Positions 2,518-3,083 of a DNA stretch of 14,967 nt are shown piece after piece. Position numbers and translations under genes: made by a program. A model generated the notes under the pieces. It was not told the DNA's origin and did not search any database. It saw only the letters and a program-made list of their open reading frames with translations. Numbering within the stretch: the stretch's first letter is position 1; each line of letters starts with the position of its first letter. This DNA is from a virus. The stretch is from the UHGV virus genome UHGV-1809322; one strand, given 5' to 3'.

Positions 2518-2595
2518 TTGTTATGCCTCCTTGCGGAGCCGCACCCTTTTTCCCTATGCTAATCCGGGCGTTCACAACGGGTGCAATCAAAAGAT

Positions 2596-2617
2596 GTGAA
2601 CTTGGATTGCTGGGGTC
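2596..2617 (+). repeat. 22-bp direct repeat copy 1 (GTGAACTTGGATTGCTGGGGTC)
   Basis: Exact 22/22 identity with the copy at 2903-2924, in non-coding DNA. Confidence 0.9.
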
Positions 2618-2902
2618 GGCGGGTTATAAGGCTTTCATACCCGGCGGGGGCTAACCCGCTGAAAGACCTAAGGCAGAGAGCTATCTCGCCAATTTAGTGA
2701 CTCTCATAACAAGAGTGACTAAGGGGCGAGAATGCTTTCGACCAACCTTACGACCGGCACTCGGTTCACGGGCACCATTCTGCATTAAGCTCTCGGAATT
2801 TCAACATTTATTTTGATGCCTTTCTGCTTCCCCGACGCTCTTTTATATAATTTTTGTTATAAGAACACTTGATCTCAGCGTCAGGTCTTGTAGACTGGAA
2901 GC

Positions 2903-2924
2903 GTGAACTTGGATTGCTGGGGTC
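2903..2924 (+). repeat. 22-bp direct repeat copy 2 (GTGAACTTGGATTGCTGGGGTC)
   Basis: Exact 22/22 identity with the copy at 2596-2617; the two copies are 307 bp apart (start to start) and bracket an AT-rich segment containing a TATAAT hexamer (2846-2851). Confidence 0.9.
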
Positions 2925-3048
2925 TTAATAAGCGAAGGCTTGTTGAGGTTTACAGAGTTTTGCCAAACACTACGCTAGCTACGTAATGTTTTTGAAGGCC
3001 GCTAACCTTCTGCGCAAAACACATCCCTTCCTGTGGATGCTGCAGGAC

Positions 3049-3078
3049 AAAAAAAACCACCTTTGAGGTGGTTTTTTT
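3049..3078. terminator. Bidirectional rho-independent terminator (A8-CCACC-TTTGA-GGTGG-T7)
   Basis: 5-bp GC stem CCACC/GGTGG (3057-3061 / 3067-3071) extended by A/T pairs, flanked by an A-run upstream and a T-run downstream, so it gives a hairpin plus U-tract on either strand. It lies 5 bp downstream of the stop of the minus-strand gene 3084-3887. Confidence 0.7.
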
Positions 3079-3083
3079 GTTGT

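Follow-up and report, generated by a model that had tools for sequence, protein, structure and literature searches.

The window analysed here is the complete 14,967-nt stretch of the virus genome UHGV-1809322, and a non-coding island within it (positions 2518-3083), marked by two identical 22-bp direct repeats, is in our judgement likely to be part of an RNA-controlled cassette with two genes, of the type I toxin-antitoxin kind. We have little doubt that the cassette comprises an antisense small RNA (sRNA) and a messenger RNA (mRNA), and that this pair controls a 53-aa open reading frame (ORF) on the minus strand. That the 53-aa product is a toxin, which would make the cassette a true toxin-antitoxin module, appears probable with greater reservation; we infer this role from the architecture and the mobile distribution of the cassette only. 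Comparative sequence analysis demonstrated both predicted genes with their promoter-like and terminator motifs, the structures of both RNAs and their intermolecular pairing, including a conserved and covarying duplex of 21-25 bp that joins the predicted 5' end of the sRNA to a site in the leader, some 80-100 nt ahead of a sequestered Shine-Dalgarno (SD) sequence. Repeat 1 is the predicted target site of the sRNA in the 5' untranslated region (UTR) of the divergent small-protein gene, and by the same comparison both repeat copies are functional, being neither iterons nor recombination scars. The features of the cassette in the window are listed below.

2323-2349, both strands: G+C-rich hairpin, an 11-bp perfect inverted repeat with a T-run on the plus side only
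2356-2517, minus strand: 53-aa ORF, putative type I toxin, MKTVSNQLIFAIAFLALLVFGGVNLKADSIKVYKFEAQNIEFQVQGVIPHTKQ; the ATG is preceded by GGAGG at a distance of 8 nt
2518-2770, minus strand: structured 5' UTR of about 250 nt with the hairpins SL-A (2735-2678), SL-B (2668-2630) and SL-C (2610-2583) and an SD hairpin (2538-2527)
2596-2617, minus strand: repeat copy 1, the sRNA site in the mRNA 5' UTR, at -100 to -79 relative to the AUG
2777-2804, minus strand: predicted mRNA promoter from a consensus scan, TTGAAA (2804-2799), 16-nt spacer, CAGAAT (2782-2777); predicted +1 near 2770
2869-2896, plus strand: predicted sRNA promoter, TTGATC (-35, 2869-2874), 16-nt spacer, TAGACT (-10, 2891-2896); predicted +1 at G2903
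2903-3083, plus strand: antisense sRNA, putative antitoxin, about 176-181 nt, consisting of a free 5' pairing region, the hairpins SL1, SL2 and SL3 and an intrinsic terminator
2903-2924, plus strand: repeat copy 2, the first 22 nt of the sRNA and its pairing (seed) region
2969-2987, plus strand: SL1, loop UAGCUA, 7-bp consensus stem with 6 of 7 pairs compensatory
2994-3010, plus strand: SL2, GAAGG-CCGCUAA-CCUUC, 5-bp stem with four compensatory pairs
3050-3078, both strands: bidirectional intrinsic terminator, which ends the sRNA on the plus strand and an isrK-C4-icd-like-ant operon on the minus strand; its stem is kept in all sRNA homologues

Covariation of the two repeats

The exact 22-mer GTGAACTTGGATTGCTGGGGTC occurs twice on the plus strand, at 2596-2617 and 2903-2924, with a spacing of 307, while no further copy with three or fewer mismatches exists elsewhere in the window. 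Matches at this threshold appeared in 0 of 200 dinucleotide-preserving shuffles of the window, and the two identical repeats that a first-pass annotation of this DNA had reported are therefore confirmed and not expected by chance. The related locus L001 likewise has the two copies, spaced 309 bp apart; a G-to-A change is shared by both, which gave a first sign that the copies evolve together.

We analysed 17 loci for such partners, which correspond to 13 distinct ones after merging duplicates. In all 17, the leader site precedes the ATG by 77-100 nt, and 12-23 nt of it are matched by an exact partner located 262-356 bp further upstream. The partner is a direct repeat in nine of these loci (window, L001, L002, L006, L038, L041, L042, L049) and an inverted repeat in eight (L010, L012, L040, L043-L048); the second copy is inverted in six lineages with RNA complementarity retained. 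The sites themselves differ between lineages, the mRNA site reading GACCCCAGCAATCCAAGTTCAC in the window, ACCCAAGCAATCCAAGCCAAC in L010, CCCTTAGCGATCTAAGTCAGC in L040, GCCCAAGTAATCTAAGTTCGC in L041 and CATCTAAGTTAGCAAC in L045, and within each locus the two copies match.

For the RNAs from a direct DNA repeat to be complementary, the two copies must be transcribed in opposite directions, whereas the copies of an inverted repeat must be transcribed in one direction. In every locus a TAnnnT hexamer stands on the 5' side of the partner copy, which is followed by conserved hairpins and an intrinsic terminator, the whole unit being oriented antisense to the leader. This constant arrangement indicates that the partner copy represents the predicted 5' end of an sRNA, the gene of which has been inverted during evolution with RNA complementarity preserved, something that sites for DNA binding would not lead one to expect.

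To quantify the complementarity, we combined the sRNA 5' end and the leader site in one gap-free alignment and counted base pairs on it. Standard pairs are formed in 95.5% of the cells, compared with 22-45% when the partner is slid by 1-3 columns. Changes on both sides were found for 12 of the 22 pairs (45 cells), a value as high as this being reached in 0 of 500 shuffles, and G-U wobbles are retained at some positions of the duplex. The core duplex between sRNA and leader in the window comprises 22 bp with -42.7 kcal/mol, and in an all-against-all matrix of duplexes the cognate pairs are the most stable or are tied with those of close relatives.

A second region of complementarity involves the SL2 loop GCUAA (2999-3003) of the sRNA, which matches UUAGC in the SL-B loop and UAGC motifs of the leader (2646-2650, 2681-2684). 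In L049 the SL2 loop reads GCGAA and two leader motifs are changed to UCGC (UUCGC in SL-B). With one covarying lineage, and with L043 having no such loop, a kissing-loop contact between SL2 and the leader is weakly suggested.

The sRNA and the structured leader

A TAnnnT hexamer is situated exactly 6 nt 5' of the first complementary G in 13 of 13 loci, which places the predicted start of the sRNA at repeat 2 (2903) and its length at about 176-181 nt. An equivalent sRNA promoter was found in L001 by the consensus scan. The consensus structure obtained with RNAalifold from alignment A3 contains 22 pairs, 15 of them with compensatory changes, and the fold has a z-score of -2.7; SL2 is the most conserved motif of the sRNA and SL3 is variable. 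We built a covariance model, R1, from 13 sRNA homologues, which scores 117 bits on the window sRNA and 83-123 bits across its homologues. Applied to metagenome loci outside its training set, R1 located an sRNA just upstream of the ORF in 5 of 5 cases with 84-121 bits. Overall, each of the 22 related loci examined combines the ORF with a partner sRNA.

Sequences of the E. coli lineage carry an insertion of about 35 nt in the sRNA, which forms an additional hairpin (2924-2960 on the plus strand of the window). Its AAGGCUU is the complement of an AAGCCUU found in the leader about 10 nt before the main site, within the 3' arm of SL-B, and the sRNA-leader duplex may thereby be lengthened.

On the mRNA side, a CA(G/C/A)AAT hexamer with a -35-like element is found at the same place in 13 of 13 loci, about 250-265 nt upstream of the ATG, and nucleotide homology to Enterobacter plasmids begins at 2769, coinciding with the predicted mRNA start at 2769-2770. 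The leader structure predicted by RNAalifold from alignment A5 has 54 pairs, of which 19 are compensatory, and the minimum free energy of the leader corresponds to a z-score of -3.3. SL-A and SL-B are long hairpins with clear covariation, and the sRNA site makes up the 5' arm and loop of the conserved hairpin SL-C. The SD sequence is held in a small conserved hairpin, CUCC-GCAA-GGAG, which covaries as well, reading CUCU/AGAG in L043 and being extended to a 7-bp version in L041.

The leader may in addition pair with itself, as the 5'-terminal GUGAAC of the mRNA can pair with GUUCAC in the 3' part of the sRNA site in the window. Across the loci, the mRNA begins with GUGAAC, GCGAAC or GUUGAC, which is similar to the six-nucleotide start of the cognate sRNA. 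In the alignment, 93.9% of the cells of this helix are paired and 3 of 6 pairs are compensatory, with 16-37% for slid controls, a count to be read with the caveat that the helix was taken from the window's own fold. We also considered a coupled upstream ORF of the mok or tisA type, which was rejected, the short AUG-initiated frames of the leader not being conserved.

These results bear on most of what the first-pass annotation had read from the island. It had described a non-coding, partly AT-rich segment with a TATAAT hexamer, a bidirectional terminator and short repeats. Positions 2518-3083 indeed hold no conserved ORF, and alignments with relatives contain 1-2-nt indels; TATAAT is present at 2846-2851 within a stretch (2778-2902) of 38% G+C versus 51% for the whole window; and the terminator, which serves both strands, is a 13-bp inverted repeat without mismatches, placed between runs of A and T. 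The short repeats AGTGACT and CGGCGGG, each occurring twice, are likewise real and form the arms of the conserved hairpins SL-A and SL-B. Its idea of a plus-strand sRNA that includes repeat 2 and ends at 3078 is strongly supported, the compensatory changes and the R1 hits in independent loci attesting to conservation of this segment, whereas the promoter and the length of roughly 220 nt proposed with it were wrong: the position of TATAAT is not conserved, and the hexamer sits in the AT-rich spacer between the two predicted back-to-back promoters. The 53-codon ORF, which immediately adjoins the island, was absent from that annotation, as was the role of repeat 1 as the predicted sRNA target, and the supposedly kilA-like neighbour gene is instead a fused Dcm/Dam enzyme, a 744-aa C5-cytosine and N6-adenine (Dam-class) DNA methyltransferase encoded on the plus strand at 82-2316.

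The 53-aa protein

The ORF encodes a protein with a hydrophobic N-terminal segment followed by the conserved motif GGV..KA.S.....FEAQ..E....G..P..K, and 14 columns are invariant in an alignment of 12 sequences (A2). The ratio of nonsynonymous to synonymous changes (pN/pS) is 0.18-0.46 in eight diverged ORF pairs, which indicates that the ORF is under purifying selection; the value of 1.93 for the near-identical pair of the window and L002 stems from one synonymous difference. AlphaFold proposes a single long helix at a modest mean pLDDT (predicted local distance difference test) of 69.7, with block means of 82 for residues 1-10 and 91 for residues 11-20. The hydrophobic segment is followed by L-K-A|D, placing Ala at -1 and Leu at -3 before an Asp, a pattern that has been reported for the uncleaved signal sequence of TimP (PMC7667032). 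Searches of Pfam and PHROGs returned no match for the protein, the Hok/Gef family of Pfam included, and in NCBIfam one of 12 members (P0011) reached 15.5 bits against toxic_TimP, for which the cut-off is 45.

Alternative explanations

Several points speak against reading the island as a type I toxin-antitoxin cassette. Both RNAs are predicted, and both promoters are consensus-level predictions; the sRNA promoter of the window agrees with the consensus at 8 of 12 positions and was not listed by the consensus scan, and the 3' hairpin of the small-protein mRNA on the minus strand (2323-2349) has no U-tail. The family is small, so that the covariation rests on about 8-10 independent lineages. As for the protein, we infer toxicity for what is predicted to be a single-pass membrane protein, and it is putative: the family has no detectable homology to any known type I toxin (Pfam, NCBIfam, hhalign), and at 53 aa, with a conserved hydrophilic tail, the protein exceeds most trans-regulated type I toxins (26-41 aa) in length. 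TimP, the closest analogue, is itself tolerated at native expression levels (PMC7667032).

The protein could accordingly be a non-toxic membrane protein, such as a regulator, an exclusion or an envelope factor, which is tuned by a genuine sRNA-mRNA pair. Such a role would suit the missing homology to known toxins, the growth permitted by TimP and the strongly conserved, hydrophilic C-terminal 30 residues, which are unusual for pore-forming type I toxins, as well as the fact that some copies of the cassette are chromosomal. We nevertheless consider it unlikely, because the cassette is self-contained and occurs in many unrelated mobile contexts, beside a toxin-antitoxin pair and integrases, as is typical of addiction modules, and because control in several layers, with a sequestered SD sequence, self-pairing of the 5' end and a 22-bp antisense interaction, is a hallmark of toxin genes (PMC11228461).

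Two further explanations deny the repeats a role as RNA. On a plasmid-like element, a non-coding and partly AT-rich island that has the same 22-bp site twice, at a distance of about 300 bp, could provide binding sites for proteins at the DNA level, i.e. iterons, partition sites or operators, and the first-pass annotation had offered an iteron or partition element as its alternative. However, there are no more than two copies, none of the adjacent genes is a replication or partition gene, six lineages have an inverted second copy, this copy always stands at the 5' end of a unit of promoter, hairpins and terminator, and the cassette also resides on chromosomes and in prophages with unrelated replication systems. 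The copies covary nucleotide for nucleotide such that Watson-Crick or G-U complementarity is kept, and G-U wobbles are meaningless for DNA sites, which makes this explanation very improbable. Alternatively, the repeats could be a functionless recombination remnant or duplication junction left by insertion of the immunity module at 3084-7400, and the absence of the isrK-C4-ant block from Enterobacter plasmids does place module boundaries nearby. Those plasmids, however, contain the repeat pair even without the insertion, with unchanged spacing and a G-to-A change shared by the two copies, and distant loci retain a cognate pair despite extensive sequence change; the relatives are not recent copies of one another, protein identity among them being 47-89%. 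The covariation data refute chance remnants of recombination, and we give this last explanation practically no weight.

Proposed mechanism

Under the preferred reading as a type I toxin-antitoxin cassette, the minus-strand mRNA would start near 2770 and the divergent sRNA would extend on the plus strand from 2903 to about 3083. The scheme is modelled on the studied systems tisB/istR-1, zorO/orzO, dinQ/agrB and timP/timR (PMC11228461). In the primary transcript, the SD sequence would be locked in its small hairpin and the 5' end of the mRNA would mask part of the sRNA site. The region around the site is probably needed to open or load the ribosome-binding site, as a standby or refolding element like those of tisB, zorO and timP. 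The free 5' end of the sRNA would then invade the site and block translation, and the resulting 22-bp duplex would probably become a substrate of RNase III. If the sRNA were lost, for instance together with the mobile element and provided that the sRNA is the less stable RNA, the membrane protein would be made and the cell harmed, whereby the cassette would stabilise the mobile elements that carry it.

A more far-reaching version, which we advance tentatively and with somewhat less than even confidence, holds that the cassette represents an undescribed mobile type I family in which the antitoxin cassette has been inverted without loss of pairing, the mRNA 5' end serves as a built-in cis-antitoxin and the SL2 contact may start pairing. 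Inversion of the antitoxin cassette without pairing loss would mean that only RNA-RNA complementarity is under selection. The 5' end, as a copy of the first six nucleotides of the antitoxin, would silence the nascent mRNA until the sRNA takes over in trans.

Comparison with known systems

We class the cassette as a new family of an already known type of system, one that would act in the manner of timPR or tisB-istR1 without belonging to either. Searches of the literature yielded no description of the 53-aa/sRNA family, which does not prove that none exists. In its layout the cassette equals timPR, tisB-istR1, zor-orz, shoB-ohsC and dinQ-agrB (PMC7667032, PMC11228461).

Nearest in architecture is timP/timR. 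Both share a divergent sRNA whose extreme 5' end pairs far upstream of the ribosome-binding site (over 18 nt in timPR and 22 here), a site located in a leader hairpin with the SD sequence in a separate hairpin, and a small protein whose N-terminal helix resembles a signal sequence and has Ala-1/Leu-3 ahead of Asp (PMC7667032, PMC11228461). They differ in the length of the leader (about 250 nt here versus about 146) and of the protein (49-56 aa here versus 38-41), and whereas timPR occupies a fixed chromosomal site between sseA and sseB, the cassette described here is found on mobile elements, and in half of its lineages the sRNA gene is co-oriented with the toxin gene.

Homology to timPR was examined in three ways and rejected. 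Model R1 gave terminator-level scores of 14-20 bits in the K-12 timR locus, and for TimP (NF040796) hhalign returned a probability of 1.65% and the full HMMER search did not retrieve it. The ryfA family (RF00126), which scores 315 bits on K-12, had no match at E<=10 in 2250-3150 and none at E<=0.1 in seven related loci. K-12 TimR (L050, 2340-2860) contains GGCCGCGAACC, which by eye is near the SL2 motif GGCCGCUAACC, a likeness unsupported by the covariance model. K-12 also has a second timR-like copy, together with the Rfam IS128 RNA, between timR and ryfA.

With tisB/istR-1, zorO/orzO, dinQ/agrB and shoB/ohsC the cassette shares an sRNA gene that is adjacent to the toxin gene rather than overlapping it, and perfect complementarity of about 18-30 nt between sRNA and toxin 5' UTR, located ahead of a ribosome-binding site that is sequestered. 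As predicted here, the mRNA 5' end of those systems pairs with the regulatory site, which keeps their primary transcript inactive until it is processed (PMC11228461). Their toxins differ, being 26-29 aa long and unrelated in sequence. No SOS (LexA) box was noticed here, no search aimed at one having been made. A search of 2250-3150 with Rfam, at gathering thresholds and at E<=10, produced nothing real, only sub-threshold matches driven by the terminator; OrzO-P (24.6 bits, cut-off 60) and AgrB (23.1 bits, cut-off 40) were sub-threshold matches of this kind on the wrong strand.

Likeness to hok/sok extends to carriage on plasmids and prophages, a membrane protein of about 50 aa, a long and highly folded mRNA with a 5' end engaged in long-range pairing, and an antisense RNA with a single-stranded 5' tail. 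In contrast, Sok is cis-encoded and overlaps the mok leader, whereas the sRNA here is trans-encoded 260-360 bp away, and hok is coupled to mok, whereas the present cassette shows no conserved upstream ORF and no Hok/Gef match in Pfam.

Distribution

Protein and profile searches starting from the 53-aa ORF led to 14 homologues of 49-62 aa, and tblastn led to five plasmid records. A full HMMER scan of 1.84 billion cluster representatives contained only six family members, which points either to a small family or to one whose gene is seldom annotated. At 2330-2769 the window is 79.5% identical to two Enterobacter kobei phage-plasmid-like replicons, one of which is L001. Searches of GenBank phages with the island (megablast and blastn), and of phages (tblastn) and viral contigs (protein scan) with the 53-aa ORF, gave no hits. 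The 17-mer GCATTCYCGCCCCTTAG was matched at 23 genome-contig loci and in two viral contigs, all of which were chance matches (blastn).

The hosts belong to Escherichia, Enterobacter and Klebsiella, in which the cassette is located on phage-plasmids, F-type conjugative plasmids, integrase-flanked islands, prophages and chromosomes. A region of 480-900 bp without a called gene precedes the ORF in every related locus, and the neighbours vary, comprising tail or methyltransferase genes of phage-plasmids, a Cas1 gene with an AcrVA2-like gene, IncF plasmid genes, an F-type traY-traK operon, integrases, a helix-turn-helix/ParE toxin-antitoxin pair and a chromosomal IclR/ShlB region. As the ORF and its upstream region stay constant amid unrelated flanks, they travel together as one cassette. 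In L045, L046, L047 and L049 the cassette immediately follows a tyrosine integrase gene, in L045 beside a tRNA gene (421-492, 673-1842), a position at the border of integrated islands or prophages.

Among 5,426 complete E. coli genomes there was a match to a spacer of clustered regularly interspaced short palindromic repeats (CRISPR) only, and no cassette. The 3' end of the ORF (2356-2388, minus strand) is matched 33/33 in 135 of these genomes, the match consisting of a 32-nt CRISPR spacer and the adjoining repeat base, with a consensus AAG protospacer-adjacent motif on the minus strand. In one inspected genome the spacer is leader-distal in a type I-E array between iap and cas2e. None of the spacer-bearing genomes has the cassette itself.

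Type I systems are regarded as narrow in distribution and low in mobility, in part because annotation misses their small genes and RNAs. The cassette, which Rfam, Pfam, NCBIfam and PHROGs do not recognise, may be a stabilisation or stress module on mobile elements of clinical relevance, and would constitute an unusually mobile type I-like family with informative natural variation rather than a new principle. Its at least eight cognate seed/site pairs and two gene orientations amount to a natural dissection of an antisense interaction, suited to studying antitoxin specificity, cross-talk of co-resident copies and control of a sequestered ribosome-binding site from a distant leader.

Genomic surroundings

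The hairpin at 2323-2349 is common to the convergent methyltransferase gene and the small-protein mRNA, and acts as a predicted terminator on the plus strand. In related phage-plasmids, homologues of this methyltransferase, 826-910 aa long, lie beside the cassette. On the other side of the island, the minus-strand gene that ends at 3084 (3887-3084) encodes an Ant-like anti-repressor according to its PHROG matches. It belongs to a minus-strand operon that stops at the 3050-3078 terminator and consists of an isrK match, a C4 match, a 162-aa ORF and the ant-like gene. The Rfam matches to isrK (4605-4530, 62 bits) and to the C4 antisense RNA (4505-4418, 71 bits) stand in tandem on the minus strand, and the whole corresponds to an immunity block like ImmI of P1 (c4-icd-ant). 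In the Enterobacter relatives, which lack this block, the island directly abuts a PAAR gene, which is followed by tail genes. In the closest E. coli relatives (L002-L004, 763-2434), a solitary Cas1-family gene and an AcrVA2-like gene replace the immunity block of the window.

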